Notes: generated by a model from the sequence alone, not told the origin. A stretch of DNA of 60,055 nt from Candidatus Omnitrophota bacterium (GCA_037134795.1 JBAXLM010000002.1:1-60055), one strand, 5' to 3'. Shown: positions 14,618-38,455, numbered from the stretch's first letter. A program made the numbers and translations.

Positions 14618-14622
14618 TAAAG

Positions 14623-15693
14623 ATGAAAAACTATGGTATAATTGAAAAATATAAAAAATATTTACCCGTCGGGCAAACAACCCCAATAATTACTTTAAAT
14701 GAAGGCAATACTCCCTTGGTTTTTGCCAGTTATTTGAGTAAATTGGCGGGTGAAAACTTCGAGGTGTATCTAAAATGCGAAGGAGCTAACCCTACAGGTT
14801 CATTTAAAGACCGCGGAATGACCTTAGCTATATCCAAGGCTTGTGAAGAAAAAGCTACCGCGGTTATCTGCGCATCAACGGGTAATACTTCTGCATCTGC
14901 CGCGGCATATTCGGCTCGCGCCGGTATAAAATGTATTGTGCTTATTCCTAACGGAGCAATTGCGCTAGGAAAACTTAGCCAAGCATTAATCCACGGGGCA
15001 GAGGTCTTGGCAATAAGCGGAAATTTTGATACGGCCTTAGAATTAGCTAAAGAGATTAGTTTAAAATACCCAGTAACTCTTGTTAACTCTCTTAATCCCT
15101 TTCGCATCGAAGGACAAAAAACCGGTAGTTTTGAAATATGTGATTACCTTGGAGAGGCTCCAGATTTCCAAATTATGCCAGTAGGAAACGCAGGAAATAT
15201 CACTGCTTATTGGAAAGGATATAAAGAATACAAATCAGGAGGGCTCAGCAAGAAACTTCCTGGTATGCTGGGTTTTCAAGCAGAAGGCGCTTGTCCTATA
15301 GTAAAAAATAAACCTATTAAGTATCCTAAAACAATTGCCACTGCCATTCAAATAGGAAACCCGGCAAGCTGGAAAAGTGCGCTAGAGGCACGCGATGAAT
15401 CTAATGGGCTAATTGATTCAGTAACTGATGCCCAAATCTTAGCAGCTTATAAAATTCTAGCAGTTAAAGAAGGCGTGTTTGCTGAACCAGCCTCAGCAGC
15501 ATGCATTGCTGGACTATTAAAATTAATCAAAAATGGATATTTTAGAAAAATTAATACTACTAACAAATGTAAAATTGTGTGTATATTAACCGGACACGGT
15601 TTAAAGGATCCGGAAAGAGCCATAAAAAGCGTAAAAAAACCAAAACTACTTAGGCCTAACATTAAAACGATATTAAAAGAGATTGGATACTAA
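14623..15693 (+). CDS. thrC: Threonine synthase
   Basis: PLP-lysine motif NPTGSFKDRG, plus ASTGNTSAS and GNAGN. Confidence 0.9.
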   Translation: MKNYGIIEKYKKYLPVGQTTPIITLNEGNTPLVFASYLSKLAGENFEVYLKCEGANPTGSFKDRGMTLAISKACEEKATAVICASTGNTSASAAAYSARAGIKCIVLIPNGAIALGKLSQALIHGAEVLAISGNFDTALELAKEISLKYPVTLVNSLNPFRIEGQKTGSFEICDYLGEAPDFQIMPVGNAGNITAYWKGYKEYKSGGLSKKLPGMLGFQAEGACPIVKNKPIKYPKTIATAIQIGNPASWKSALEARDESNGLIDSVTDAQILAAYKILAVKEGVFAEPASAACIAGLLKLIKNGYFRKINTTNKCKIVCILTGHGLKDPERAIKSVKKPKLLRPNIKTILKEIGY

Positions 15694-16333
15694 TTTAAAA
15701 GGAAAAAAGGTTTTAATAACCTCTGGGCCCACTTGGGTGGCAATAGATAGCGTAAGGGTTATAAGTAATACTGCAACTGGTGAAACCGGAATCGAGTTAG
15801 CTAAAAAATTTATTCAACAAGGCTGCAGGGTTACTCTTTTGTTAGGCCCGGTTAACATCGCTAGCTTAGATAACAAAATAAAGGTAAAACGTTTTTCATT
15901 TTTTAAAGAGTTAAATACTTTATTAAAAAGCGAACTTAAGAAAGATTTCGATATTGTAATTCAATCCGCTGCAATAAGCGATTTTGCTCCTAAGCTCTCT
16001 GATAATAAGAAAATAAGCTCAGGATGCAAAAAGCTTAAACTTATACTTAAACCGACAGTTAAAATTATTAATTGTTTACGTAAGCTTAAACCAAATGCAT
16101 TTCTGATAGGTTTTAAATTTGAGCCACACTTTAAAGCTAGGGAACTTATTAAAAAAACACGTAACCTTATTGAATCAGCTAATCTAGATTTAGCAGTAGG
16201 TAACAACTTGCTTAATAAACAATATAGCGCGTATCTTGTAAATAAAACAGGCGCATGCGGCCCATTTTTATCAAAACCGGCAATGGTTAACAATTTAATT
16301 AAATTAATCGAGAGAAAATATGCCGCAAACTAA
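15683..16333 (+). CDS. coaB: Phosphopantothenate-cysteine ligase, monofunctional (CoaB domain only)
   Basis: VLITSGPTWVAIDSVRVISNTATGETG matches the CoaB consensus (TxGGTxExIDxVRxIxNxSSGxxG). No CoaC flavoprotein half is present. Confidence 0.75.
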   Translation: MDTNLKGKKVLITSGPTWVAIDSVRVISNTATGETGIELAKKFIQQGCRVTLLLGPVNIASLDNKIKVKRFSFFKELNTLLKSELKKDFDIVIQSAAISDFAPKLSDNKKISSGCKKLKLILKPTVKIINCLRKLKPNAFLIGFKFEPHFKARELIKKTRNLIESANLDLAVGNNLLNKQYSAYLVNKTGACGPFLSKPAMVNNLIKLIERKYAAN

Positions 16334-17534
16334 GTACATTGTTTTAGTTGCAGACGGAATGGCAGATTACCCAATCCCAGAGTTAGGATTACGTACCCCT
16401 TTAGAGGCAGCGCGTACTCCGAATATGGATTTTATCGCTAAAAGCGGCTTGGTGGGGCAAGCCAAGACTATTCCCAATAAGATGAGCCCCGCATCCGACG
16501 TAGCTAATCTTTCAATATTAGGATATGACCCCAAAAAATATTATTCAGGCAGGGGCCCCTTAGAAGCTGCTAATCTTGGCATAGAATTAGAAGACGACGA
16601 CGTTGTCTTCCGCTGTAATTTAATTACTGCCGGTGATGATATTTTACTTGATTATAGCTCTGGGCACATCAAATCAAAAGAAGCGGATCAATTGATCAAA
16701 TTCATTGACCAAAAGTTAGGTAACAATAAATTAAGATTTTTTCCCGGAGTAAGCTATCGGCACCTGCTTTTAGTCAAGCGTGGAGCTGAATTAAAGTTAG
16801 AGTCCTTAATTTGCCACGCGCCACACGATATCACGGGGATGAATATCAGTAAAAACCTGCCTAGGGGTGATAACGCAGATTTAATTATAAAACTTATGCT
16901 TGATTCTCGCCAAATACTAAACAATCACGAGATTAATCAAGTGCGTTTAGACTTAAAGGAGAACCCAGGTAATATGATTTGGCTGTGGGGCCAAGGTAAA
17001 AAAACAAATATGCCTAAATTCCTAGATAAATTTGGGTTATCAGGAAGCGTTATATCCGCAGTCGACTTAATCAAAGGGCTGGGAAGGCTTCTTGGCCTGG
17101 AAGTAATTAATGTGATAGGGGCAACTGGTTATTATGATACCGATTACGAAGCGAAAGCCAGAGCGGCAATTAAATCTCTAAAAAAACATAACTTTACTTT
17201 TGTGCATGTAGAAGCACCGGATGAAGCCGGACATAATGGTGATCTACGGGAAAAACTTACAGCTATTGAACGATTTGATCAACTAGTCGTAGGAACAATA
17301 TTAGAATATTGTAAAGAAAAAAACGATTTTCGTATTATGGTTTTACCTGATCACGCTACACCGCTATCACTAAAAACACACACCTCAGAAGCAATTCCCT
17401 TTGCAATGTGCGGGAATGGTATCATTGCTAAAGGTTTTAATAGTTATAGTGAGAAAGAAGCGCAAAAATCAGAACTTTATTTTGAAAATGGGTATGAACT
17501 AATGAATTATTTCTTAAATACCCCGCGCTTATAA
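16320..17534 (+). CDS. Archaeal-type cofactor-independent phosphoglycerate mutase family protein (ApgM-like); possible non-orthologous homoserine kinase
   Basis: 404 aa. N-terminal VLVADGMAD metal-site motif and HVEAPDEAGHNGD...DH.TP (alkaline-phosphatase superfamily). Sits between thrC/coaB and lysC. Confidence 0.7.
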   Translation: MPQTKYIVLVADGMADYPIPELGLRTPLEAARTPNMDFIAKSGLVGQAKTIPNKMSPASDVANLSILGYDPKKYYSGRGPLEAANLGIELEDDDVVFRCNLITAGDDILLDYSSGHIKSKEADQLIKFIDQKLGNNKLRFFPGVSYRHLLLVKRGAELKLESLICHAPHDITGMNISKNLPRGDNADLIIKLMLDSRQILNNHEINQVRLDLKENPGNMIWLWGQGKKTNMPKFLDKFGLSGSVISAVDLIKGLGRLLGLEVINVIGATGYYDTDYEAKARAAIKSLKKHNFTFVHVEAPDEAGHNGDLREKLTAIERFDQLVVGTILEYCKEKNDFRIMVLPDHATPLSLKTHTSEAIPFAMCGNGIIAKGFNSYSEKEAQKSELYFENGYELMNYFLNTPRL

Positions 17535-17543
17535 GGAGAACGA

Positions 17544-18767
17544 ATGATGCATAAAGGTTTAGTTGTGCAAAAATATGGAGGTTCATCCGTAGCAAATGTC
17601 GAGCGCATACAAAAGGTAGCGCAAAGGATAGTTAGTTATCGAAAAAAAGGCTACGCTCTGGTCATAGTTGTATCTGCTTTAGGTGATACTACTGATGAAT
17701 TAGTTACGCTAGCTAATAAAATCAATACCAACCCTTCAGAGCGTGAGATGGATATGCTGCTTTCTACAGGAGAACAGATATCAGTCGCGCTTTTAGCTAT
17801 GGCTATTCACAAATTAGGGATTGAAGCTATCTCATTTACCGGTGCCCAAGTAGGCATTATTACTGATACAAGCCATACTCGCGCCAGGATTATAAAAATA
17901 AATACCGATAAAATTAGAGCAGAATTAAAAAAAGGTAAGATAGTTATTGTTGCCGGTTTTCAGGGAGTAACTTTAGATCAAGATATAACTACCCTAGGTA
18001 GAGGCGGTTCAGATTTGACTGCTGTAGCTTTAGCTAAAGAATTAGGCGCAGATTCCTGTGAAATCTACACTGATGTTGAAGGTATTTATACTACTGACCC
18101 ACGGATTGAGCCAAAGGCTAAAAAGATTAACGCGATCACTTATGATGAGATGCTTGAAATGGCTTCACTTGGCGCGCAAGTTATGCAAGCCCGGTCTATT
18201 GAAGTAGCTAAAAAATTCAACGTACCTTTACATGTACGCTCTTCGTTTTCAACAAGTTGCGGAACAATGATTATCAAGGAGGTAGATAAGATGGAAGATG
18301 TGGTAGTGAGCGGAATAACCTTAAATAAAAACGAGGCTAAAATTACGCTTTGTGGGGTTTCTGATAAACCTGGAATTGCCGTAAGGTTATTTAAGCATCT
18401 AGCCGAGGCAGAAGTAAGTGTTGATATGATCGTGCAAAACGTAAGCCATACCCGGCTAACTGATATATCATTTACAATTGCTAAAAGCGACTGCGCAAAA
18501 GCAAGCAAAATAACTAAAAAGGTAGCCCGGGACATCGCTGCAGGCGAAGTTCTCTTAAATGAAGATATCGCTCGAGTTTCCATTGTAGGCGTGGGCATGA
18601 AATCGCATCACGGCGTTGCCGCGAAGATGTTCGGGATAATGGCAGCTAACAAAATTAATATTGAGATGATCTCAACAAGCGATATTAGTATATCTTGTAT
18701 TATAAAAAAGAAATTTGCTGAAATAGCGGTAAGGAAATTACACGCGGAGTTTGGATTAAGCCTTTAA
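17544..18767 (+). CDS. lysC: Aspartate kinase with two ACT domains
   Basis: VVQKYGGSSV, VVSA.GDTTDEL, GRGGSDLTA, TDVEGIYTTDPR. Confidence 0.92.
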   Translation: MMHKGLVVQKYGGSSVANVERIQKVAQRIVSYRKKGYALVIVVSALGDTTDELVTLANKINTNPSEREMDMLLSTGEQISVALLAMAIHKLGIEAISFTGAQVGIITDTSHTRARIIKINTDKIRAELKKGKIVIVAGFQGVTLDQDITTLGRGGSDLTAVALAKELGADSCEIYTDVEGIYTTDPRIEPKAKKINAITYDEMLEMASLGAQVMQARSIEVAKKFNVPLHVRSSFSTSCGTMIIKEVDKMEDVVVSGITLNKNEAKITLCGVSDKPGIAVRLFKHLAEAEVSVDMIVQNVSHTRLTDISFTIAKSDCAKASKITKKVARDIAAGEVLLNEDIARVSIVGVGMKSHHGVAAKMFGIMAANKINIEMISTSDISISCIIKKKFAEIAVRKLHAEFGLSL

Positions 18768-27260: not shown

Positions 27261-27274
27261 ATAATAAAAAACTC

Positions 27275-27302
27275 TTGACAAGAAATTTTTTTTATCTATA
27301 AT
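27275..27302 (+). promoter_or_regulatory. Consensus sigma-70 promoter of groES-groEL
   Basis: TTGACA (27275-27280), 16 nt spacer, TATAAT (27297-27302). Confidence 0.8.
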
Positions 27303-27328
27303 TAGCACTCTAGAGAAAAGAGTGCTAA
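27302..27328 (+). promoter_or_regulatory. CIRCE operator (HrcA binding site)
   Basis: Perfect match to TTAGCACTC-N9-GAGTGCTAA, abutting the -10 box. Confidence 0.92.
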
Positions 27329-27390
27329 TAGAATAAGTCCTCGCACAAAGAAGTATTTGGCGGGATAAATCATTTAAAGGAGGAGGCAAG

Positions 27391-27681
27391 ATGGAGATTA
27401 AACCATTGGGTGATCGTATCGTGGTTAAACCTTTAGAAGCAGAAAATAAAAGTAAGGGCGGAATTGTACTGCCTGATACTGCCAAAGAAAAACCACAAGA
27501 AGCTAAAGTTGTAGCAGTAGGAAAAGGCAAGGTGCTAGAAAATGGCACTGTGCAAGCGCCAGAAGTAAAAGTAGGGGATAAGGTTTTATTCGGAAAATAT
27601 TCCGGGAATGAAATTACCACTAAAGAAGGCGAAGAGTTGTTAATCTTACGCGAAGACGACATTTTAGCAATTATTAAGTAA
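27391..27681 (+). CDS. groES: Co-chaperonin GroES
   Basis: 96 aa. [11 protein letters not shown] and GGIVLPD mobile loop. GGAGG Shine-Dalgarno. Confidence 0.97.
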
Positions 27682-27732
27682 CTTATCCTGACGAAGCTTT
27701 GAGCCGGGACAACATATCTAAGAGGAGGATGT

Positions 27733-29376
27733 ATGGCAAAGCAATTATTGTATAGTGATGATGCGCGCCGCAAGATTTTAAGAGGCATCGAGCAGCTAGC
27801 AGCAGCTGTAAAAGTAACCTTAGGCCCAAAAGGGCGCAATGTAGTAATTGACAAAAAGTTTGGTTCTCCCACAATTACAAAAGACGGAGTTACCGTAGCC
27901 AAGGAAATTGATTTAGAGGATCCTTTTGAAAATATGGGCGCTCAGATGGTCAAAGAAGTCGCGGAAAAAACTTCCGATATCGCGGGTGACGGAACTACCA
28001 CTGCTACTGTCTTAGCTGAAGCAATCTATCGCGAAGGATTAAAAAATGTAACTGCCGGATCAAATCCCATGATGTTAAAACGCGGAATTGAAAAAGCGGT
28101 TGAGAAAATAGTTGAAGAGCTGGGTAAACTTTCTACTCCTATTAAAGATAAAAAAGAGATCTCTCAAGTTGCAAGTATCGCGGCTAATTCCGACACCGCT
28201 ATCGGTGAATTAATTGCCGAAGCAATGGATAAAGTCGGTAAAGACGGGGTGATCACGGTTGAAGAAGCAAAATCTACCGCTACAACTCTCGAGGTTGTCG
28301 AAGGTATGCAATTTGACCAGGGATACTTATCTCCATATTTTGTAACTGACGCGGAAAGAATGGAAGTTCTTTTAGAAGATCCTTATATTCTCATTTATGA
28401 GAAAAAAATATCTTCAATTAAAGATATCCTTCCTTTATTAGAAAAGATCGCTCGCGTCGGAAAACCATTATTGATCATTGCCGAAGAAGTAGATGGTGAA
28501 GCCTTGGCAACTTTAGTGGTTAACAAAATCCGCGGCACCTTTGTTGCTTGCGCGGTAAAAGCTCCGGGTTATGGTGATAGGCGTAAAGCTATGCTTGAAG
28601 ATATCGCTATTTTAACCGGAGGAAAAGCATTAACCGAAGATCTAGGCATTAAGTTAGAAAATATTGAAGTGGAAGACCTAGGAAGAGCAAAAAAAGTTAA
28701 AATTGACAAAGAAAATTCTACTATTGTCGAAGGCGCGGGCAAAAACGCAGCAATCAACGCAAGAATTGCCCAATTAAAGAAACAAATTGAAGATACCGAT
28801 TCAGATTATGACAAAGAAAAACTACAAGAACGCCTGGCTAAATTAGCTGGTGGCGTCGCGGTAATTAATGTAGGTGCTGCTACGGAAACCGAGATGAAAG
28901 AAAAGAAAGCCCGAGTTGAAGATGCCTTACATGCAACGCGCGCAGCTACTCAAGAAGGAATCGTTCCAGGCGGCGGAGTAGCTTTTATCCGTACTATTGC
29001 TGCTTTAGATAAACTAAAGCTTGAAGGTGATGAGAAAATAGGCGTTAATATTGTAAAGCGCGCTATTGAAGAGCCCTTAAGGCAGATCGCTCAAAATGCA
29101 GGCCTAGAAGGTTCAGTAGTTGTGCAAAGAATCAAACAGGAAAAAACCAATATTGGTTACGATGTTAGCCAGGATGCTTATGTAGATATGATTGAAGCTG
29201 GCGTAATTGATCCCACAAAAGTAACTCGTTCAGCATTGCAAAATGCTGCCAGTATTGCCGCACTATTACTCACAACTGAAGCTTTAATTGTGGATAAGCC
29301 TGAAAAAGACGAGAAGATGCCTATGATGCCACCCGGAGGCGGTATGGGAGGAATGGGCGGCGGAGGAATGTATTAA
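27733..29376 (+). CDS. groEL: Chaperonin GroEL
   Basis: [26 protein letters not shown]-terminal GGM repeats. Confidence 0.98.
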
Positions 29377-29412
29377 AAAACAGTAAATAGTTGTTAGCAG
29401 ATAGAGTAAAAA

Positions 29413-29449
29413 GCAAAAGGCGTAGATAAAATCTACGCCTTTTGCTTTT
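29413..29449 (+). terminator. Rho-independent terminator after groEL
   Basis: Perfect 15-bp stem GCAAAAGGCGTAGAT / ATCTACGCCTTTTGC with a 3-nt loop, followed by TTTT. Confidence 0.85.
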
Positions 29450-29485
29450 AGGCCTGAACCAAACAGTAAAAAAATAGTAAAAAAC

Positions 29486-29514
29486 TTGACAAATTCAGTT
29501 CAGCATGTTATATT
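29486..29514 (+). promoter_or_regulatory. Consensus sigma-70 promoter of the giant gene
   Basis: TTGACA (29486-29491), 17 nt spacer, TATATT (29509-29514), preceded by TG (extended -10). About 125-nt leader before the TTG start. Confidence 0.7.
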
Positions 29515-29516
29515 TT

Positions 29517-29528
29517 ACCTAATTAGGT
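29517..29528. promoter_or_regulatory. Perfect 12-bp palindrome at the predicted transcription start (candidate operator)
   Basis: ACCTAATTAGGT lies 3-14 nt downstream of the -10 hexamer. Confidence 0.3.
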
Positions 29529-29640
29529 GAAATTCGTTAAATAATCAAACCAAACCGAGAAGAGTCATATCGGTTTTCTTTTGTCCAGGTTTTAAAGTAT
29601 TTTAAAAAGTATTTAATAACTTTGCTTAAAAAGAAAGGGG

Positions 29641-29724
29641 TTGAAAAAAATGTGGCGTAAAATTTCTTCCATTTTAGTTGCCTTCTGCTTACTCTTCCAA
29701 CAGTTAGGTTTTGCCAGCATGGCT
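29641..29724 (+). other. Predicted Sec signal peptide or N-terminal membrane anchor of the giant protein
   Basis: MKKMWRK (basic n-region), ISSILVAFCLLFQQLGF (hydrophobic core), ASMA (small residues at -3/-1). Confidence 0.6.
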
Positions 29725-32700
29725 ACGGAACTTAACCTTGCCGGGCATTTAAGTAAGATGTCCAGCGCCTTTACGCCTGACAGATTTCGGCCGATACATA
29801 TCAGGTTTTTCTCTTATGACACGCTTAATGACAATATCAAGGTTATGCTGGATAAAGGCGATGTCAAAAACCTTAAAGAAAGCCAGATTAATGCCTCAAC
29901 TCAAGAACTAATAAATTACTTTTTAGTGGGAGTCAGCCTTCCTGATAATAAATTCTGGGTGAATTTACGCCCGGATTCAGAAGATAACATTATAGATAAC
30001 TGGTTAGCTAAGACTGAAGTGGGAAAAATTATGCTTGAGGCTGACCTGCAGTTAAAGAAAGATACCGCTGAATTTACTTCGCCGCAAACTACTGAAGGGA
30101 GGCTTTACTGGAGCAAACTTTACCAGAAAGCTGCCGAGCTCTATGGAAATCAAGAAGTAAACATACCTACCCTAACTCGTCCCTGGATCGTGCCTAATGA
30201 AATAATTGTCCGCGAGTCCGGAGATAGCGCTTATATTTATAAAGCCACCTTAAAAGTAATGTTAGAGCAGGATTTTCTTAAAGATTCCAGCGTTTACAAT
30301 TTTAAGGATGAACGCGCCAAGGCTTTAAACGAATATTCTTCCCAACTTATCCGCGAAATCATAATTCCTAAACTAACGCAGGAAGTTAATCTCTCTAAAC
30401 GTTATGCCCCTTTAAGGCAAGTATATTATTCCATCATTCTCTCCCGCTGGTTTAAATCCAGATTTTCCAATCAAACTGGTTCTTACGCCTCGCGTATTGA
30501 TAAAAGAGACCTTACTGGCCTGGTTTCCGCGACGGCCTGGTCTAAAACTGCTTATTTTGACGCTTACAAGAAATCATTCGCGCAAGGTGAATACAATATT
30601 AAGGAAACAGTACATACTCCCACAGGCCAGGTAATTAGGTCTTATTTTTCCGGAGGCATGGATTTCGCGGCTATGACAATCAACGGAACCAATATTACCA
30701 GCAGCCCAATTGCCACCGCGCTGATGAAAGCCGGATTAGTTACGCCAGGTACGCCTGAGTCAACAAGCAGCCCGGTATCTATAGAGGTAAGAGGAATAAA
30801 CAGTCTTAAAGGCCTGGTAGATGCTCAAAATATTGATTCCGGCATTATGGTCATGGACTGGAATGTAATGCGTAAAGATCTGGGTGAAGATAGTAAACTT
30901 GCGCGTATTTTTGATTCAATTGATGCGATTGATGAGGCATTTAATAAGTTAGGCCTTCAATACCTATTTGCCATTACTCATGCAGAGAGGCCACAGGAAG
31001 AGAAAGATCCTCAAATACGATTTGATAAATTCAGTTTAGTACCCATCGTCAATAAAGCTAAAGAAATTTTGGCCAAGAAAGGGTTAAGTAATGTTGAAGT
31101 TGTAATGCTTCCTTTTGATTTAGATGAAGCGGGAAGGATCGTCAAGGAATCTATAGCAAAAGCTGATGGAAAGAAAATAATGTTTATATTTGAGAATATA
31201 AGGTTATACAAGCAAGAACAACTCGTTGCCGATAAAACGGCATCGTTTGCGCAAAAGTCAGAAGTAGTTAAAACCAGAAAAGCCTTTGAAGAAAAAATTA
31301 TTAATGTCACCGGAAGGGCCGTTGACAAGCTGGTTTATATCTCTGAAGCTTTTGATAAAGCGCATCGCGGTGAAGAAGCATCTATGGAAATGGCCTGGCT
31401 TTTTCCGGAGGAGAATCGCGCCGCAGGCCCCAAGTTTGGCAAAGATATACAATCAGTGCTTAGTTTTCAGTTGCGTATTACCGGGTCTTTAAGCGCTATG
31501 TTCGGAGGGGCTAAATTTGATAAATATGACGCATTCGGTAAATTAGCTGAGGCGATCGCTAAATCCAAAGGCAAGCTCATGATAGTGGGCGCGCAGCTTA
31601 ATGCTTATATTAAGTCGCAAAATATGGAGACTGGTAAATCATTGCTCCCGAACGCAAGCGACCAGAAAAAAGTAGATAAGGGCATTGAAGCTATGAATAA
31701 ATCCGGAGTAGCAATACTTTTACCGGAAGATTTAATTGTTGAAGGCAGGGCAGAATCCGTGGCATTAAACGCCCTTACTACCGAAGACGTGCAGATTGAT
31801 ATAGGAGACAAAGCAATTGAACAGGATGTAAATTATATAAATAGCCTTAAGAAAGGCGACGGGCTGATCTTAAACGGAGGCGCCGGAATTTTTGACAGAG
31901 CTACCGGTTCAAAAAAAGGAACAGTCGCGCTAATAGTAGCGGCAAATGAAGCTGCCAAAAGAGGGGTTGCGGTAATAGCCGCAGGCGGCGATATGTATAA
32001 CGCGGTGCAACTAGTAATTAAAGAAGCTCCCGGTTTTGAACTTGATCCTACCTTTGAGATTTCAACGGGAGGCGGTTCTTTATTAACTTCTTTAGCTAAG
32101 GGTATTGCTAATCTTCCGACGGTACGGGCAGTGCTTAAAATGGATCCCACTCAGGGGCTGCATGATATTTATTCATCTGTTAAAGAAGCGTTCCCCCAGG
32201 CAATAGTATTAAATACCGTGACTACCCTCGCGGAAGATTCCTCAATCAACGGCGACGAAGCCAACAGAAAAGCGTTATTGGACCCATTCAGGTCAATCGC
32301 CGGAACAATGAATATCGTCATACCCGACGGTCCGTTAGACATACGGCCAAACCTTATTTATGACGGCGCATTTATGCCGGTAGTGGTATTGGCGCAAAAT
32401 GTGCCGGACGCGCTTAAAGCGAAGATGGACGCTGCCAAAGATTCAACGGCAGTCTCCGATACTCTAGTTGAATACGTTAAGCCATTCTTTGCGGCTTCAG
32501 ATGTAAATATGAATACGGTTACAAAGGATAAACTACGCTCATCAAAATTAGACCCGTCGAAATTAGGGGCAGCTTCGGTGGATATCTCCGCTATGAAAGG
32601 CACCAAGTCAGAAAACGGAGATCTATTATTCTATGTGCCTGTATGGTCTAAACGCAGCGTTGCAGCAATGGATACTTTGAATGAAAAAATCAGCGCTGAC

Positions 32701-35448
32701 CTTAAGGCGCAAGCTCCTTCAATTGCAGCTTTACTGGAAGAAACTAGAGCGCCCCTTAGCTGGCCGAAAGAAGCTTTGGTTATCTCTAATTCAGAGGCAG
32801 CGTTACAATCTTTTGCCCAGTACGCGCCTCTATTTTTTGATGAATTTTCTAAAGGAGACCTAACTCATGCAGTCTTGTTACGGGAAATAATTTCTAATTT
32901 AGAGCCGCAGACATTTGTAAATCCCGAAGGAATCACGATTGACGAACTTATGGGAGATTTTATTTCTACTAAAGATAAGGACGCCAAAATCCCCGGGATA
33001 GGCAAGAACCTGCTTGCTTTTAAGAGCCGTATCAATACCCTGCAGCAGCTGTCGTTCTTCCTGTACATCGTGGCAAATCCGCAGGTTGACGCTACTACTA
33101 ATGCAGCAATTCCCGTTAAAGACGCAATTTTACAAAATGAAATTGTGGGTTTTTATGCCCGCACTTACAGGTATTTACTTGAGATAGCCCAGAATAATTT
33201 TAATAGCGCCAAAGAACTTGACGGTTTAAGGGATGAGATCGGAAGCAACGCGCAACGTTTAAACAAATCCTTGCGCGACAGCGACGCACTTGAAATAAGC
33301 AAAGCGACCGCAAAACAGCTGATCGATCACCTCACAGCTAAAGGAGTAGCTCTTAATCAAGCGGAAAAAGATAATCTGGCTAAAGTATTCGCTTATTATG
33401 AAAACAACGTTTTTGCCTATGACATCCTTATGTTGGCAGGATTATTAAGAGAGGATACGTTTATTGCCAGCTTCAGGCACCTGGCGTTGGATAATCCCAA
33501 ACAGGTTTTGCCTTCGCAAAAACCGTATGAAGCAATTGACGGTACTGGCCAAATCGGGAGCGTTGCTATTGCTCTGCGTTTTGCCAGCGATATCGACGCC
33601 CAGGAACCGGGTTATGAGGGTAAATATTTACTAAGGACGACTAAACTTAAAGGAGAGACAACGAATGAAAAATTTGCATCCGCTGTAAAGGTAGCTGTTG
33701 AATCTTTCAGCGACCCGATTATAAAAAGTTCAGAATTAAAAATAAGGACCGGGGATGGTTCAAGGCAATTAGTTGCCGACCTGGTAGCAAGCGGACGCAT
33801 TCAGTTTAAGGCTACTGACCAGGTAATATTGAGCAGGCTCGATTTCCAGGATCCGATATACGTGCAAAGTGTTTATCCCGTGGAGATCGTATTGGATGGT
33901 AAAAAAGTAGGCGTAATAAACTTCTTGGACATCACTCAGTTTGAAGCTGGATATAAAGAAGTGGCCACAAACAGAAGCCTGCCTGTTTTAGTGAATATCC
34001 CTCGTCCCATGATCATACGCGAAGCTAATGGTAAAGAGATATATTTTTCTTTAATAGTTGACGCTACTCCGGGAGGAGTTAATATCGGTAACCTGCAACT
34101 TACAGAAGCGGCAGCGCAAGGTAAGCCTAAACTTGACGGCCCTCCGTTATTTAAGTTTACCGGTAAATACGCTTTGGAAAATGAAACAAGCGCCGTAGAA
34201 GGAGACGCAGCCGTAGAGTTGATACGTTTGAAAGAAATCTTACAACAGACAGAAGCAAAACGCCTGCCTCAAGGCGGCAACGAATCATTTATTTACGTAA
34301 AAGCCCAAATACCTTCCAAATTAATCTTACCTGACGCGTTGGGCGGCTCAATCAATTTTATGGGTAAATATTTGCATAAGATCGCGCATGTTAAAGAATC
34401 AGGGGCACAGTTCATTTCAACTACTTCATGCTCTACTAACGGCGAAAGCTATATTACTCTCGCCTTATCGGCATTCGCAGGTAAGTTCGGTTTAAATAAG
34501 ATCGCTAAGGCAGGCCCCACGTATCATATGTATACGAGCGGCGACAGCAAAAAAGGCCTTTTCGGCGACCTTAATGAAAAAACTACCGGAGCTGCAAAAG
34601 GAGTAAGAGAGCATCTGCTTCTTGACGCGATATACGGGGCAATGCGTACTCCGACCGCGTATACTAACGGTCAAACTGATTTAAAAGGCGGTTCGCTATT
34701 TTATCTTTCCGTATTGTTGCCACAGAATATTCAGGAAAGCCTAGTCCGTAAGTATATCGCCAGGGTTGCAAGCGAGTACCCGGAGATGCTAAAACTCTTT
34801 ACCGAAGCGGACAAAGTCAACGGACGCTACACGCATGAAAATACAATATTCGGCCAGCGCACAGGTTCAATCCTCTATGAGGATTATATCAACCAGGTAG
34901 CAGGGCCTTTGTATACGTTGTTAGTCGGTTACGATAATGAGATGAGTTTCTCATTCAAGATGCAGGAACTTATTACGCAGTTTCTGCGTATCAAGGCGCG
35001 CCAGAAAGATTCAGTTATCCTGGCGCAATTAGCTCCTTTATCCAATACCGAAGAAAAAACAGCTAGCTCAGCAATTACAGATAACGATAAAAAGGGCGGT
35101 ATTGATTTCCGTGCCGCAGCCCTGACAATCAAATATCAGCCGATGGGTAATTTTGCCAGCCTAAACCCGAAACTTCCGGTTTTAAATGCGGCAGAGTTGG
35201 CTGTTTTTGATATTGAAAAAGAGCTCTCCGGAATAGAGAGGCTAGTGGATAGCCAGATGGTTCCTTCCGGTGAGAGAATCAAAGAAGTTTTAGCAGCCTG
35301 CTCGCAAAAGGGAGAACTGGGAGCTAATAAAGAACGCCTTATGGTATTACTGGTAAAAATGGGGATATTGGAAGAGACCCAGTGCTGTCTGCAAGAGGCT
35401 AGCCAGGAATATAAGGAAGCATTGGTTCTGGCGGATTCCTTAGTATAA
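29641..35448 (+). CDS. Giant (1,935 aa) signal-peptide-bearing multidomain protein with embedded PGK-like and GAPDH-like modules
   Basis: Uninterrupted 5.8 kb ORF in AT-rich DNA. TTG start 8 nt after an AAAGGGG Shine-Dalgarno. Own promoter and terminator. See the sub-features below for domain evidence. Confidence 0.9.
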   Translation: MKKMWRKISSILVAFCLLFQQLGFASMATELNLAGHLSKMSSAFTPDRFRPIHIRFFSYDTLNDNIKVMLDKGDVKNLKESQINASTQELINYFLVGVSLPDNKFWVNLRPDSEDNIIDNWLAKTEVGKIMLEADLQLKKDTAEFTSPQTTEGRLYWSKLYQKAAELYGNQEVNIPTLTRPWIVPNEIIVRESGDSAYIYKATLKVMLEQDFLKDSSVYNFKDERAKALNEYSSQLIREIIIPKLTQEVNLSKRYAPLRQVYYSIILSRWFKSRFSNQTGSYASRIDKRDLTGLVSATAWSKTAYFDAYKKSFAQGEYNIKETVHTPTGQVIRSYFSGGMDFAAMTINGTNITSSPIATALMKAGLVTPGTPESTSSPVSIEVRGINSLKGLVDAQNIDSGIMVMDWNVMRKDLGEDSKLARIFDSIDAIDEAFNKLGLQYLFAITHAERPQEEKDPQIRFDKFSLVPIVNKAKEILAKKGLSNVEVVMLPFDLDEAGRIVKESIAKADGKKIMFIFENIRLYKQEQLVADKTASFAQKSEVVKTRKAFEEKIINVTGRAVDKLVYISEAFDKAHRGEEASMEMAWLFPEENRAAGPKFGKDIQSVLSFQLRITGSLSAMFGGAKFDKYDAFGKLAEAIAKSKGKLMIVGAQLNAYIKSQNMETGKSLLPNASDQKKVDKGIEAMNKSGVAILLPEDLIVEGRAESVALNALTTEDVQIDIGDKAIEQDVNYINSLKKGDGLILNGGAGIFDRATGSKKGTVALIVAANEAAKRGVAVIAAGGDMYNAVQLVIKEAPGFELDPTFEISTGGGSLLTSLAKGIANLPTVRAVLKMDPTQGLHDIYSSVKEAFPQAIVLNTVTTLAEDSSINGDEANRKALLDPFRSIAGTMNIVIPDGPLDIRPNLIYDGAFMPVVVLAQNVPDALKAKMDAAKDSTAVSDTLVEYVKPFFAASDVNMNTVTKDKLRSSKLDPSKLGAASVDISAMKGTKSENGDLLFYVPVWSKRSVAAMDTLNEKISADLKAQAPSIAALLEETRAPLSWPKEALVISNSEAALQSFAQYAPLFFDEFSKGDLTHAVLLREIISNLEPQTFVNPEGITIDELMGDFISTKDKDAKIPGIGKNLLAFKSRINTLQQLSFFLYIVANPQVDATTNAAIPVKDAILQNEIVGFYARTYRYLLEIAQNNFNSAKELDGLRDEIGSNAQRLNKSLRDSDALEISKATAKQLIDHLTAKGVALNQAEKDNLAKVFAYYENNVFAYDILMLAGLLREDTFIASFRHLALDNPKQVLPSQKPYEAIDGTGQIGSVAIALRFASDIDAQEPGYEGKYLLRTTKLKGETTNEKFASAVKVAVESFSDPIIKSSELKIRTGDGSRQLVADLVASGRIQFKATDQVILSRLDFQDPIYVQSVYPVEIVLDGKKVGVINFLDITQFEAGYKEVATNRSLPVLVNIPRPMIIREANGKEIYFSLIVDATPGGVNIGNLQLTEAAAQGKPKLDGPPLFKFTGKYALENETSAVEGDAAVELIRLKEILQQTEAKRLPQGGNESFIYVKAQIPSKLILPDALGGSINFMGKYLHKIAHVKESGAQFISTTSCSTNGESYITLALSAFAGKFGLNKIAKAGPTYHMYTSGDSKKGLFGDLNEKTTGAAKGVREHLLLDAIYGAMRTPTAYTNGQTDLKGGSLFYLSVLLPQNIQESLVRKYIARVASEYPEMLKLFTEADKVNGRYTHENTIFGQRTGSILYEDYINQVAGPLYTLLVGYDNEMSFSFKMQELITQFLRIKARQKDSVILAQLAPLSNTEEKTASSAITDNDKKGGIDFRAAALTIKYQPMGNFASLNPKLPVLNAAELAVFDIEKELSGIERLVDSQMVPSGERIKEVLAACSQKGELGANKERLMVLLVKMGILEETQCCLQEASQEYKEALVLADSLV
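30841..32130 (+). other. Phosphoglycerate kinase-like module (aa ~401-830)
   Basis: Collinear matches to PGK signatures: VMDWNVM (RVDFNVP), ITHAERPQ (SHLGRPK), FSLVPIVNKAKEIL (YSLAPVA..L.ELL), FENIRLY (ENLRF), SEAFDKAHRGEEAS (DAFGTAHRAHAS), GGAKFDKY (GGAKVSDKI), DIGDKA (DIGPKT), LNGGAGIFD (WNGPMGVFE), GT, IAAGGDM (IGGGDS), ISTGGGSLL (STGGGASLE). Confidence 0.8.
33529..34980 (+). other. Class-I GAPDH-like module (aa ~1297-1780) with a large insertion in the NAD-binding half
   Basis: IDGTGQIGSVAIALRF (GINGFGRIGR), FISTTSCSTNGESY (IISNASCTTNCLAP; catalytic Cys codon at 34429-34431), PTYHMYTSGD (TVHAxTxxQ; His retained), TTGAAKGV (STGAAKAV), MRTPT (RVPT), VGYDNEMSFS (WYDNEWGYS). Confidence 0.75.
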
Positions 35449-35472
35449 GATAGAATTCTTGCGGTTCTTAAA

Positions 35473-35503
35473 AACCCCGGGCTTAGTTAACCCGGGGTTT
35501 TTA
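35473..35503 (+). terminator. Rho-independent terminator after the giant gene
   Basis: AACCCCGGG / CCCGGGGTT 9-bp GC-rich stem, 9-nt loop, then TTTT. Confidence 0.85.
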
Positions 35504-35536
35504 TTAATACCGTAAGCTCATCAAATAAAATAAATA

Positions 35537-35565
35537 TTGACAAACTCACCGCTTAGGTGTAAAAT
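35537..35565 (+). promoter_or_regulatory. Sigma-70 promoter of the guaB-like/guaA operon
   Basis: TTGACA (35537-35542), 17 nt spacer, TAAAAT (35560-35565), with TG upstream (extended -10). Confidence 0.7.
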
Positions 35566-35657
35566 TTAATATCTTTTCGTAATTACTCATCAAAACCGAG
35601 CAAAAAGTCGTAAATTATTGAAAAACAATAACTTACATACCATAGGAGAGACTTAAA

Positions 35658-36818
35658 ATGGCAGAATGGATAGGTATAGGCAGGCGCGCAAGAAGATGCT
35701 ATGGATTTGATGAGATTGCTTTAGTCCCCGGTGCACAAACCGTAAATCCCAATGAAGTTGACATAAGCTTTAAATTTGGGGATAAAAAATTTAAGATACC
35801 TATCCTTGCTGCTGCTATGGATGGAGTTGTCGATGTGAAATTTGCCATTGAAATGTCCCGCTTAGGGGCAATCGCGGTTTTAAATTTAGACGGTATCCAA
35901 ACGCGCTATGAAGATCCCGATGAAGTGCTGCAAGAGATTGCCAAAGCTACCCCGCAAAAAGCTACAGAGTTAATCCAAAAAGTTTACACCACTCCGATTA
36001 AAGAAAAACTCGTCTCAAAAAGAGTAGCCCAGATAAAAAAAGCAAAAGCTACCGCGGTAGTCAGCTGTATTCCAGCCAATGCTGAAAGATTCTCAAAACT
36101 CGCCATTGCTGCCGGAGCGGATATTTTTGTCTTGCAGTCAACAGTAACTACCACCAGGCATATCTCCACACAATACAAAGTGCTTGATTTGAATAAATTC
36201 TGTAAATCTATCTCCATCCCGATTATTCTAGGAAACTGCGTTACTTATGAAACAACTGTGGAACTTATGTCAACTGGCGCAAGCGGATTACTTATTGGCG
36301 TTGGCCCGGGAGCTGCTTGCACAACCCGCGGCGTATTGGGCATTGGCGTTCCGCAAGTAACCGCAACAGTAGATGCCGCAGGAGCACGCGACTTTTACTT
36401 TAAACGCACAGGAAAATATGTTTCTATTATTACTGATGGAGGGATGAATCGCGGTGGAGATGTTTGCAAAGCCTTTGCCTGCGGAGCGGACGCGGTGATG
36501 ATCGGGTCAAGTTTCGCGCGCGCCTGCGAGGCACCGGGAAGAGGATTCCATTGGGGAATGGCTACTTCACATGTTAATCTACCACGTGGTACCCGTATAC
36601 AAGTGGGCACAACCGGGTCATTAAAAGAGATTCTTTTAGGCCCGGCGAAAACAGATGACGGCTCGCAGAACCTTATTGGTGCTTTAAAAACATCCATGGG
36701 TTCACTTGGAGCATCAAACCTTAAAGAAATGCATGACGTAGAAATTATTATCGCACCATCAATCCAGACTGAAGGTAAGATATTTCAGGTAGGCCAAAAA
36801 GTAGGAATGGGAAAATGA
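35658..36818 (+). CDS. IMP dehydrogenase family protein, CBS-less GuaB3-like form with the catalytic Cys retained
   Basis: 386 aa. The N-terminus [20 protein letters not shown] resembles mycobacterial GuaB3-type proteins. [20 protein letters not shown] matches the IMPDH active-site loop (GIGPGSICTTR). No CBS pair. Stop overlaps the guaA start. Confidence 0.7.
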
Positions 36819-38356
36819 CCAGGCAAACAATATTAATCTTAGATTTCGGTTCACAATACACCCAGTTAATCGCGCGCCGTGTCAGGGAAAGCAAAGTATT
36901 CTCTAAAATTATTCCCTATAACACGCCGGCAAGTGAAATTGCCGCGTTAAATCCTAAAGGGTTGATTCTTTCCGGTGGGCCCGCTTCAGTGGTTGATAAA
37001 AAATCACCTTATCCTGACAAGGGTATTTTTAAACTTGGTGTTCCAATACTTGGAATTTGTTATGGGATGCAGGCTATCTGCGAAATGCTCGGGGGAAAAG
37101 TAAAACACACCCGGGAACGCGAATACGGTAAAGTCGAGCTGTTCGTGGATGATAACCGTGATCTTTTTAGCCATATGCCAGGCAATTTTACTTGTTGGGC
37201 CAGCCACGGTGATTACGTAACTAAAATGCCCGCGGGATTCCATACCAGCGCGCACACTACCAACACCCCGATCGCGGCTATATCTAATCAAAAAAGAAAA
37301 ATATTTGCCGTACAGTTCCATCCGGAAGTAACGCATACAGAAAAAGGTAATCAAATCTTAAGTAATTTCTTATTTAAATCCTGCGGCTGCCTAAGCAGAT
37401 GGACTATGCAATCGTTTATTAAAGAAGCTATCGCCAATATTAAAATTACAGTTGGTAAAGATAAAATGGTCCTGGGCTTAAGCGGCGGAGTAGATTCTTC
37501 TGTAGCTGCTTTGCTTATTCACAAAGCCATTGGAAAAAATTCACGCTGTATTTTTATCGATAACGGTTTGCTAAGAAAAGGCGAAGCTGAACAGATCAAA
37601 GCCGTATTTAAAAACTTATACCACCTTAATTTAAGTTATGTAGATAGAAGCAAAAGATTCCTTGACCGCCTAAAGGGAATAACCGATCCGGAAGAAAAAA
37701 GAAAAATAATTGGCGATGAATTCGTTAAAGTATTCGAAGAAGAAGCCAAAAAGATCAAAGGCGTGAAATTCCTAGGCCAAGGCACTCTTTATCCGGATGT
37801 CATTGAATCCATTTCTCCGACAGGTGGCCCCAGCAGAAAAATCAAAAGCCATCATAATGTGGGTGGGTTACCCGCGCATATGCATCTAAAATTAATTGAA
37901 CCGTTAAGAGAATTATTTAAAGATGAGGCGCGAGAAATTGGAAGGCAGTTAGGATTACCTGAAAATATTATTTTACGGCAGCCATTTCCCGGGCCAGGCT
38001 TAGCCGTAAGAATTATCGGAGAGATAACCAGAGAGCGCCTTGAACTTTTACGCGAAGCGGATAAACGCGTAATTGAAGAGATCTCTAAAGCAGGGCTTTA
38101 TGAACAGATCTGGCAATCTTTTGCCATATTATTACCAATAAAAAGCGTAGGCATCATGGGTGATGAACGTACTTATGAAAATGTCGCGGCACTGCGCTGC
38201 GTCTCCAGTTTTGATGGCATGACTGCCGACTGGGTAAAACTTCCTTATGAGGTAATGGAGAGAATCTCTAACCGCATTATCAATGAAGTTAAAGGAATTA
38301 ATCGGGTTGTTTACGATATCAGCTCTAAACCTCCAGCTACGATTGAATGGGAATAA
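36815..38356 (+). CDS. guaA: GMP synthase (glutamine-hydrolysing)
   Basis: GATase ILGICYGMQ and QFHPE, ATP-PPase [12 protein letters not shown]-terminal IEWE. Confidence 0.95.
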
Positions 38357-38358
38357 CT

Positions 38359-38455
38359 TTAAGTTTAAAGTAAAAACGAAAAAGTTAAAGCTACAACCTA
38401 AAAGTCAAAAGTTTTAACTTTTAACTTGTGGTTTTACCTTTTTACTTTTAAGCTT
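38359..38455. repeat. Heptamer-repeat family palindromic element (copy between guaA and dnaE)
   Basis: AAAGTAAAAACGAAAAAGTTAAAGCTACAACCTAAAAGTCAAAAG / CTTTTAACTTGTGGTTTTACCTTTTTACTTT are imperfect reverse complements. Shares the TTGTGGTTTTRAC.TTTTT core with copies at 8890-8925 and 57071-57100. Confidence 0.75.

Follow-up and report, generated by a model that had tools for sequence, protein, structure and literature searches.

A predicted signal peptide, a PGK module and a GAPDH-like module on one polypeptide: a member of a large Candidatus Omnitrophota family with conserved ends and exchangeable enzyme cargo

The locus and its reading frame

The DNA analysed here, which we call the window, is a stretch of 60,055 nucleotides from a Candidatus Omnitrophota bacterium (GCA_037134795.1 JBAXLM010000002.1:1-60055). 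Next to 39 other open reading frames (ORFs), it carries a 5.8 kb ORF that an earlier note, made from the same sequence, had described as a fusion of PGK and GAPDH behind a signal-like N-terminus. In this study, we show that this ORF belongs to a very large protein family in which a conserved N-terminal domain (the head) and a conserved C-terminal domain (the tail), together referred to as the bracket, enclose variable cargo, and that the cargo has been replaced as a cassette at a syntenic locus. The gene is organised as follows; residue numbers count throughout from the TTG at 29641, and the slash marks the predicted cleavage site.

29547..29649, + strand: the gene's own 5′ leader, an AT-rich promoter-like stretch with the ribosome-binding site (RBS) AAAGGGG, placed after the GroEL terminator hairpin
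29641..35448, + strand: ORF, a single uninterrupted frame of 1,935 aa counted from TTG 29641
29641..29721, + strand: predicted Sec-type signal peptide, aa 1-27, with n-region KKMWRK, h-region ISSILVAFCLLF and c-region QQLGFA/S
29722..30660, + strand: head ("N-dom"), aa 28-340, ~315 aa, ending in YFSGG, 55-86% identical in all 120 best homologs
30661..30825, + strand: linker 1, aa 341-395, rich in S/T/P/A/G by composition scan, with the upstream cassette breakpoint at 30712/30713
30826..32145, + strand: PGK module, aa 396-835, with the Pfam match at aa 404-818
32146..33495, + strand: Mid module, aa 836-1285, 450 aa, common only to P0002-P0009
33496..34401, + strand: remodelled N-terminal half of the GAPDH-like module, aa 1286-1587, with a GTGQIG Rossmann-like start followed by ~150-190 extra residues
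34402..35025, + strand: GAPDH-type catalytic domain, aa 1588-1779, with a helical tail to aa 1795
35026..35079, + strand: linker 2, aa 1796-1813 (...TEEKTASSAITDNDKK), placed from the homolog alignment
35080..35448, + strand: tail ("C-dom"), aa 1814-1935 and the stop codon, starting GGIDFR, mostly helical and Cys-rich, with the downstream breakpoint at 35091/35092

The frame is continuous on the + strand, and every motif listed in the earlier note is present, collinear and where it had been placed. The PGK motifs are VMDWNVM (aa 404), THAERP (446), ENIRL (518), FDKAHR (571), GGAKF (622), DIGDKA (720), GGAGIFD (746), AGGD (781) and STGGGS (808), and the GAPDH motifs are GTGQIG (1301), TSCSTN (1595), TYHM (1627), TGAAKGV (1649), RTPT (1669) and YDNE (1764). 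Since the RBS lies directly before the TTG, the database record of the identical protein has 1,932 residues and the closest homologs start with MWRK, the real start is very probably the ATG at 29650, which gives a protein of 1,932 aa with the N-terminus MWRK.

GC content is 0.42-0.44 over 30-38 kb, a segment that spans the family gene, a guaB-like gene and guaA, against 0.36-0.40 in most of the window. This slight rise (0.42-0.44 versus ~0.38), together with the caution voiced in the earlier note, is what would speak for an assembly chimera or for a one-off fusion on this contig alone. Such an explanation is effectively refuted: the identical protein is recorded on two contigs, the full architecture was found again at 43-84% identity in eight other independent protein clusters (NCBI, JGI, ENA, Logan), and it is also present in the loci L001, L002 and L007 of metagenome-assembled genomes (MAGs).

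The PGK, Mid and GAPDH-like modules

The first cargo module matches Pfam PF00162 with E=1.4e-35 and 123.5 bits against a cut-off of 27, aa 404-818 corresponding to profile positions 14-376 of 379, and also matches the PDB PGKs 13pk and 3q3v; on these sequence grounds its identity as a PGK is unambiguous. Alignment with canonical PGKs bore out the claim that most substrate residues are kept, namely the D and N of the RVDFN motif, R38, H62 and R65 (THAERP), R122 (ENIRL), the AHR motif (R170), the lysine of GGAK, GGD and STGGG. It also confirmed that R21, the first Arg of the basic patch, is replaced by Met, and revealed that the Glu of GVFE is an Asp. The module is devoid of Cys. In another family protein, P0015 (2,513 aa), a PGK at ~aa 1215-1700 is apparently circularly permuted, with the C-domain motifs (DIGPET, WNGPMG, GGGD, STGGGA) ahead of the N-domain motifs (RIDGNVP, THLGRP, ENFRF, DAF..DHRAH).

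The GAPDH-like module has to be considered in two parts. Its catalytic domain carries the catalytic Cys in TSCSTN (codon 34429-34431) and the catalytic His in TYHM, and the equivalents of Cys149, His176, Thr179, Thr208-Gly209, Arg231 and Asn313-Glu314 are all found there. SCST, the His, TGAAKGV, the Arg of RTPT and YDNE are invariant in nine homologs of 41-86% identity. A profile of nine sequences searched against the PDB returned 26 matches, all 26 of them GAPDH, with a best E-value of 0.008. Profile-profile comparison with hhalign, in which the GAPDH modules of other family members and E. coli GapA served as reference, aligned aa 1588-1779 with GapA 141-327 at 97.2% probability (E=4.5e-11). 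According to this alignment, the S-loop is shorter by ~12 residues, the Arg195 region being among those missing.

The N-terminal 300 aa of the module gave a hhalign probability of 4.9% with the GAPDH NAD domain, that is, no demonstrated homology. No Pfam Gp_dh_N (PF00044) or Gp_dh_C (PF02800) match was obtained at E<=10, and NCBIfam TIGR01534 scored 15.2 bits, below its cut-off of 367.2, so that the curated threshold for type I GAPDH is missed. AlphaFold2 (AF2) models built from nine sequences predict a beta-alpha-beta start, with a predicted local distance difference test (pLDDT) score of 64-94 for module residues 10-190, but the model of the whole module is poor (pLDDT 52). Foldseek returned weak matches of this model to E4P dehydrogenase/GAPDH and to NTF2-like epoxide hydrolases, which are weak hints, and our reading of the alignment suggests that no acidic residue is conserved at the end of strand 2 of the NAD half. 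Altogether, the module appears to be a GAPDH-derived catalytic domain set on a rebuilt cofactor domain, and by curated criteria it is not a type I GAPDH.

Between the two modules lies the Mid module. It has no Pfam or PDB match, even with a nine-sequence profile (best PDB E=1.9); an alignment-based homolog search returned no match, not even the input sequences, and therefore says little. Of the five segments spoken of in the earlier note, one is a 450-aa module without detectable homology and another, the NAD half, is not demonstrably GAPDH-like. What stands of the proposed fusion behind a signal peptide with its catalytic residues kept is the PGK and the GAPDH-derived catalytic domain.

These changes raise the question of whether the cargo is still catalytic. 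The glycolytic folds could serve as binding or structural modules, either moonlighting-type adhesins or coat material, with their catalytic motifs left as relics; surface GAPDH, enolase and PGK are indeed classic moonlighting adhesins. The rebuilt NAD half, the shortened S-loop, the missed thresholds of the curated hidden Markov models and the Met in the PGK basic patch would all fit, as would the cargo of the syntenic relative L005 described below, whose PGK lacks the AHR motif and which has an additional Cys-less GAPDH-like region. We nonetheless consider this quite unlikely. The catalytic residues of the GAPDH-derived domain stay invariant down to 41% identity, most PGK ligand residues are kept, the fusion of consecutive steps recurs in relatives, and a single Cys, the catalytic one, is spared in 1,786 residues. 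Because it is the only one spared, catalysis would seem to be under selection.

A family defined by its two ends

Coverage of the window protein by its 120 best homologs is bimodal: aa 1-345 and 1800-1935 are covered in essentially all of them, the middle in nine. These homologs are 1,079-3,347 aa long and keep the head (motifs FWVNLRPD, DLQLKKDT, IPTLTRPWIVP, LRQVYYS, GEYN and YFSGG) whatever their cargo; the tail, ~120 aa from GGIDF, is found in 117 of the 120 and is 41-83% identical to that of other members. An exhaustive HMMER search with the head recovered 7,439 representatives of 50%-identity clusters at E<=1e-3, and 5,594 at E<=1e-30. In all 150 of the representatives listed, which are 410-6,439 aa long, the head match begins no more than ~90 residues into the protein, most often at residue 25-35. 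The window ORF has the build by which the family is defined here, with a predicted signal and head at its N-terminus, a GGID[FL] tail at its C-terminus and variable cargo in between, and a cargo-less member also exists, P0189, in which head, a 90-aa linker and tail make up 537 aa. The idea of a singular PGK-GAPDH megaprotein is thus replaced by that of one among at least 7,400 clusters with conserved head and tail.

The cargo comes mostly from glycolysis, gluconeogenesis, the pentose-phosphate pathway and nucleotide metabolism. Glycolytic and sugar-converting modules of the relatives comprise enolase, GAPDH, TIM, both PGM types, PMM/PGM, two PGI types, FBA and FBPases. Others are transaldolase, transketolase, phosphoketolase, PPDK/PEP synthase and sugar kinases, and further cargo comprises guanylate and adenylate kinases, NUDIX, HD, HEAT/TPR, DnaJ, MutS domain V, FHA, MraZ and radical SAM domains. 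Enzymes of consecutive steps are fused repeatedly, as PGK-GAPDH, GAPDH-PGK-enolase, iPGM-GAPDH-TIM-PGK and FBA-GAPDH-TIM, which supports the earlier suggestion of co-localised consecutive steps. Their order varies freely in the family, so the reversal of the gap-pgk operon order that had been singled out has no particular significance.

Among the 39 loci recovered, 34 are from Candidatus Omnitrophota/Omnitrophica, four come from one MAG titled "bacterium" and one carries the unchecked label "Candidatus Elulimicrobium". Judging from these loci, the family appears to be restricted to Omnitrophota. In some genomes, two or three family genes follow each other in head-to-tail tandem arrays (L008 1-15844; L027 6688-14110; L030 9770-16067; L035).

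Neither head nor tail has a Pfam or NCBIfam match at E<=10 or a PDB profile match, and no match was found to the two-partner secretion (TPS) domain PF05860, to the C-terminal domains (CTDs) of type IX secretion system (T9SS) cargo TIGR04183/TIGR04131, or to dockerin, PEP-CTERM or similar models. An AF2 model of the window head joined to the tail, computed with an alignment of 35 full-length relatives, reached a pLDDT of 79 and a predicted template modelling (pTM) score of 0.78, and Foldseek searches of the PDB and BFVD gave no neighbour for it (best E=0.2). For a construct assembled from two parts, such a pTM is high, and head and tail therefore probably fold as a single unit whose fold is new.

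A divergent branch has heads that are 28-37% identical and that open ORFs of >3,680 aa running past the ends of the fetched DNA. Its loci L021-L036 end in another conserved motif of ~65 aa, GGI[DNAST]L..(L)NLQIKRDG.G.PLP...Q......I.G..P.I..I.PV, which has no Pfam or NCBIfam match. Compared with the tail of the main branch by hhalign (10.7%), only the GGID start is aligned, and a common origin of the two is only suggested.

Exchange of cargo between loci

The clearest evidence that cargo moves as a unit comes from a syntenic locus. In L005, a MAG contig of 385,813 bp, the order UvrB, type III PanK, GroEL, family gene, IMPDH-like, GuaA and DnaE is the same as in the window, with 62-87% amino acid identity for the neighbours, 81% for the head and 76% for the tail. 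The cargo differs: it consists of a PGK of another lineage (24% identical, without the AHR motif), a canonical GAPDH (31% identical to GapA), a Cys-less GAPDH-like region after it and another module. With blastn, L005 and the window are collinear at ~73% over 27265-30712 and 35092-38361, with no similarity between. The breakpoints thus fall ~17 residues beyond the end of the head and at the residue just before GGIDF. The cargo has been replaced as a cassette at this locus, and because the similarity of the DNA breaks off where the head ends and returns where the tail begins, the bracket-coding DNA appears to act as homology arms for the exchange. The second GAPDH-like region of L005 (P0012, ~aa 1150-1470; ...LLSAVISMSTRPGG...), judged by eye, is degenerate, lacks the catalytic Cys and has no BLAST match with E. 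coli GapA; if real, it may be a pseudo-enzyme partner.

At a second locus, in L001, the window gene is found in full at ~80% nucleotide identity, the match beginning 94 nt before the ORF and reaching the stop codon, with a ~670-nt extra module inserted at linker 2. Judging from N-termini, it is flanked by 2-oxoacid:ferredoxin oxidoreductase-like and ferritin-like genes upstream and by hisG-like and transketolase-like genes downstream, and five related genomes carry family genes of 956, 1,165, 2,022, 2,156 and 3,600 aa at this locus. A third locus (L011, L013, L014, L016, L017, L019) adjoins gyrB-, gyrA-, glmS- and rsmI-like genes, again judged from N-termini; its head-bearing gene ranges from 1,454 to >3,712 aa, the longest running off the fetched DNA. 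A preprint places an Omnitrophota giant gene ~100 kb from the origin. The giant genes of the phylum may be expanded members of the head-bearing family.

The 5′ leader is shared as well. Starting 94 nt before the ORF, that of the window gene shows ~80% nucleotide identity with the leaders of family genes, paralogous or orthologous, that lie at another locus of the chromosome (L001, L003, L007). The aligned upstream regions have in common a terminator, an AT-rich region and an AGGAGG-like RBS, followed by ATGTGGCGT. Family genes therefore seem to carry along their own terminator, promoter and RBS leader. A similar upstream unit, made of a terminator hairpin (AGCCGAACTGA...TCAGTYCGGCTTTCTTTTTT), an AT-rich promoter-like stretch, AGGAGG and ATGTGGCGT, is seen at 29376-29650 of the window and 5′ of family genes in L001-L004, L006, L007 and L010, at different chromosomal loci. 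In a second subfamily (L011, L013-L019), the common upstream sequence is ...CTTACCTATAATATATACTT...GGCTGATAAAC.

Conserved termini around variable, recombining cargo are reminiscent of polymorphic effector systems. Since Omnitrophota are proposed predators or parasites, head and tail could traffic cytoplasm-type enzymes into a prey or host cell and redirect its metabolism; ATP and NAD would be available to the cargo in the prey cytoplasm, and transit through the envelope could also select against Cys. We give this explanation little credit. Clustering of the ORFs of the 39 loci revealed housekeeping synteny only and no recurring partner gene, and no secretion, immunity or chaperone gene recurs beside family genes. 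Moreover, the cargo consists of ordered enzymes of consecutive pathway steps and not of toxins, neither TPS, Rhs, T9SS-CTD nor any other curated secretion domain is matched by head or tail, and a member without cargo exists.

Signal peptide and cysteine content

The signal-like N-terminus noticed earlier held up on inspection. Residues 11-29, directly after KKMWRK, are the sole hydrophobic segment of the protein (mean Kyte-Doolittle 1.75), and the cleavage site GFA/S satisfies the -3/-1 rule. A heuristic scan of 172 family sequences gave the consensus M-x-R-K-I-L-S-L-L-L-[CS]-F-x-L-L-F-Q-Q-x-G-F-A/Q: an R-K n-region, 12 hydrophobic residues and a QQxGFA c-region, with G/S at -3 and A at -1, the site being reached after a median of 25 aa. 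The N-terminus is thus predicted to be a tripartite Sec signal of the signal peptidase I type, whose c-region (FQQxGFA/Q) is unusually conserved across the family. A Tat signal was ruled out by inspection, no twin arginine being conserved, as was a lipoprotein signal, there being no lipobox [LVI][ASTVI][GAS]C.

The cysteine content is equally distinctive. Of the 1,935 residues of the window protein, five are Cys. The signal peptide contains one and the tail three, which leaves a single Cys for the intervening 1,786 residues (aa 28-1813), namely the catalytic one of the GAPDH-like module (P~1e-8 given the local background). In the family, Cys makes up 0.05% of heads, 0.21% of cargo (178,473 residues) and 2.16% of tails, compared with 1.20% in the other 39 ORFs of the window and 1.25% in 282 non-family ORFs of the loci (Fisher p~1e-261). 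As a crude control, signal-peptide proteins of the same genomes have 0.67% Cys, multi-transmembrane proteins 0.91% and cytosolic-type proteins 1.36%. Cys is reportedly excluded from exported proteins in bacteria that lack or limit oxidative folding. Its near-absence here suggests that ATP-linked enzymes work outside the cytoplasm. The richness of the tail in Cys is a family-wide trait, with AAC..., QCC or C..IC motifs; the tail Cys could form disulfide cross-links specific to the tail, bind a metal or anchor the protein covalently.

A search seeded with the PGK of the syntenic relative gave 10 matches. In one of them, an ENA metagenome contig (L041 201-5660), a 529-aa PGK and a 1,248-aa PGI+PGM fusion have signal-like N-termini (MRKILSLVILISFLSTNTGFSS) and no head. 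The hydrophobic N-terminus, and not the head, would therefore be the more general feature. Another (L040 1-5807) encodes a signal-less PGK of 419 aa, 54% identical to the PGK module of L005, beside a 5′-truncated ORF with a match to the C-terminal half of GapA and, at its end, a TIM-like motif (AYEPRWALTGSG).

The earlier note had considered both a membrane-tethered metabolon and an exported protein. In the first case, an uncleaved N-terminal anchor, or a signal recognition particle tag, and the bracket would keep glycolytic enzymes that belong to the cell itself, and are possibly its sole copies, on the cytoplasmic side of the membrane in a very small cell, where PGK and the GAPDH-like module would channel 1,3-bisphosphoglycerate in ordinary glycolysis. 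This would account for the need of the cargo for ATP and NAD, for its cytoplasm-type enzymes, for the conserved housekeeping synteny and for the strong promoter-like leader of the gene itself. It also agrees with the lack of stand-alone gap and pgk genes in the DNA covered here (the window and ~600 kb of loci), with genome surveys, which count these enzymes as the glycolysis of the organism, and with the doubt expressed about the extracellular prediction for glycolytic domains (West-Roberts et al. 2023, 10.1101/2023.11.21.568195). However, a positive n-region and a neutral downstream flank predict an N-in/C-out orientation, there is no second hydrophobic segment to return the chain, and a good -3/-1 cleavage site is conserved. 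The 5- to 25-fold depletion of Cys in head and cargo lacks a cytoplasmic rationale, and the ppdK of the window is an ordinary soluble protein without such an N-terminus. We therefore hold a cytoplasmic tether to be unlikely; Cys exclusion favours the exported protein of the two options.

A proposed role for the carriers

The reading towards which we lean, with slightly better than even confidence, is that the protein is a Sec-exported, envelope-located carrier, that the bracket is a targeting or assembly device shared by the family, and that the GAPDH-like and PGK modules couple triose-phosphate oxidation to ATP formation. The domain identities, the family and its bracket, the cassette breakpoints and the exclusion of Cys are results of the sequence analysis, whereas export, envelope location, enzymatic activity, coupling and the assembly role of the bracket are inferred. 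The signal peptide would take the chain through Sec. Head and tail would then hold the carriers together in the envelope, in the periplasm or in a surface coat, possibly at the contact with prey. Each carrier would present interchangeable enzyme cassettes between head and tail, joined by Ser/Thr/Pro/Ala-rich linkers; here there are three, the PGK with a near-complete active-site set, the 450-aa Mid module and the GAPDH-derived module, which keeps its Cys-His pair and phosphate-site residues. Triose-phosphate oxidation by the latter would be physically coupled to the ATP-forming PGK step on one polypeptide, and new combinations of cargo would arise by recombination inside the conserved bracket-coding DNA.

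Several points weigh against this proposal. First, exclusion of Cys is a correlate of export and not a proof of it. PGK requires ADP/ATP, and GAPDH requires NAD(P) and phosphate, none of which would be expected in an extracytoplasmic space or be kept in by the outer membrane. Much of the family cargo (DnaJ, MutS domain V, MraZ, radical SAM, FHA, guanylate and adenylate kinases) is typically cytoplasmic, and the gene lies in a conserved housekeeping neighbourhood. Second, the carriers may be the cell's only copies of PGK and GAPDH: neither gene was encountered in stand-alone form in the window or across ~600 kb of related loci, which is weak evidence, and GAPDH, PGK and enolase are scored as present in 176 of 176 complete genomes, with their fusion status unstated (10.64898/2026.06.07.730766). 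Third, as the NAD-binding half has no demonstrable homology, the GAPDH-like module is putative in both substrate and cofactor. Finally, the packing of head against tail is read from the pTM of a chimeric construct.

A bolder version, which we put forward as doubtful, extends the proposal to the whole family. Thousands of Sec-exported, Cys-free carriers, assembled by their brackets into an enzyme layer and diversified by cassette recombination at the bracket borders, might carry out a large share of the sugar-phosphate and nucleotide conversions of Omnitrophota, the ATP-forming GAPDH/PGK steps among them, away from the cytoplasm, in the periplasm, in a surface coat or at the interface with prey. 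This might amount to a bacterial analogue of glycosome-like glycolysis, or to an "external cytoplasm" that digests prey metabolites.

Should the enzymes prove active as well as exported, a bacterium would form ATP at substrate level and convert sugar phosphates outside its cytoplasm, against textbook cell biology, and this would bear on how the ultra-small, probably predatory Omnitrophota feed. Whatever their location, the head and tail are a domain pair that defines at least 7,400 clusters, opens some proteins of several thousand residues and is absent from Pfam, NCBIfam, the PDB and BFVD, and the family offers a clean natural system of enzyme-cassette shuffling with breakpoints at base-pair level. 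Likewise irrespective of location, scores of "PGK/GAPDH present" for the phylum may count exported or remodelled modules as cytoplasmic glycolysis.

Other genes of the window

As had been stated before, no gap, pgk or tpiA is found among the 39 other ORFs of the window, and a stand-alone ppdK and an apgM-like gene are present. The apgM-like gene (16320-17534; PhosphMutase and Metalloenzyme domains) lies within 13322-18767 together with a homoserine dehydrogenase, a PALP-family enzyme (PF00291; possibly a threonine synthase), a DFP-domain gene and an aspartate kinase. Given this context, it may be a PGM-family homoserine kinase analogue rather than a glycolytic mutase. At 54264-55649 lies an ATPase of the T2SS/T4P type (T2SSE) that begins with a PilZ domain; according to a preprint, giant genes of Omnitrophota have pilZ and type II/IV secretion genes in their vicinity.

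Comparison with known systems

Signal peptides and conserved terminal modules around variable cargo are known from several secreted systems. TPS exoproteins combine a signal peptide and a TPS domain with a long variable passenger, and T9SS cargo combines a signal peptide with a C-terminal sorting domain. Like these, and like cellulosomal dockerin enzymes and polymorphic toxins (CdiA, Rhs), the bracket family surrounds exchangeable cargo with conserved ends, the cargo being exchanged by recombination at conserved borders, and the ends likely have a common targeting or assembly role, as we propose for the bracket. Unlike them, it shows no relation in sequence or fold, it carries central-metabolic cargo instead of adhesins, glycanases or toxins, and no partner transporter or immunity gene adjoins.

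Natural glycolytic fusions also exist, namely PGK-TIM of Thermotoga maritima and TPI-GAPDH of stramenopiles, which are cytosolic or organellar bifunctional enzymes. They likewise join consecutive or neighbouring steps on one polypeptide, but have no signal peptide, bracket or 450-aa spacer and, unlike the protein described here, contain canonical catalytic domains.

The nearest relatives by phylum and cargo are the giant Omnitrophota proteins, or "Archaeovorins" (10.1101/2023.11.21.568195, 10.64898/2026.06.07.730766), which have signal peptides and/or transmembrane helices. West-Roberts et al. 2023 (10.1101/2023.11.21.568195) reported that such proteins have TIM, PGI, FBPase, PGM and FBA domains in portions predicted to be extracellular, and doubted the prediction; the domains reported overlap with the family cargo (TIM, PGI, FBPase, PGM/PMM, FBA, PPDK, NUDIX, HEAT, TPR), and the location that their authors called puzzling is similar to the one proposed here. 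The same head opens ORFs of >3,700 aa beside gyrB-gyrA-glmS-like genes, which is a further likeness. On the other hand, the giant proteins reach at least 10,000-30,000 aa with many transmembrane helices, compared with 1.9 kaa and a single hydrophobic segment for this ORF. Of the traits of the Archaeovorin type (at least 30,000 aa, tens of transmembrane helices, HEAT-rich, SecA-like), it shows none, having no HEAT or SecA match. In the two preprints, PGK and GAPDH are not among the fused domains, the N-terminal regions "generally lack identifiable domains", and we found no description of the head/tail bracket, of cassette exchange or of Cys exclusion; nor did we find the bracket described in the literature searched for its motifs and for Omnitrophota glycolytic fusions. 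Public databases annotate these proteins as "phosphoglycerate kinase". The complete novelty assumed at first is therefore weakened, by this annotation and by the predicted-extracellular glycolytic domains of the 2023 preprint. With a member that is small (1.9 kaa) and expressible, the localisation question of both preprints now becomes testable.

Finally, the kinetoplastid glycosome sequesters GAPDH, PGK, aldolase, TIM, PGI, PPDK, adenylate kinase, glycerol kinase and enzymes of the pentose-phosphate pathway. While the glycosome is a eukaryotic, peroxisome-derived organelle that uses peroxisomal targeting signals (PTS), and the bracket family shows only a Sec signal and Cys exclusion, the enzymes gathered in the glycosome overlap strikingly with those carried between head and tail.

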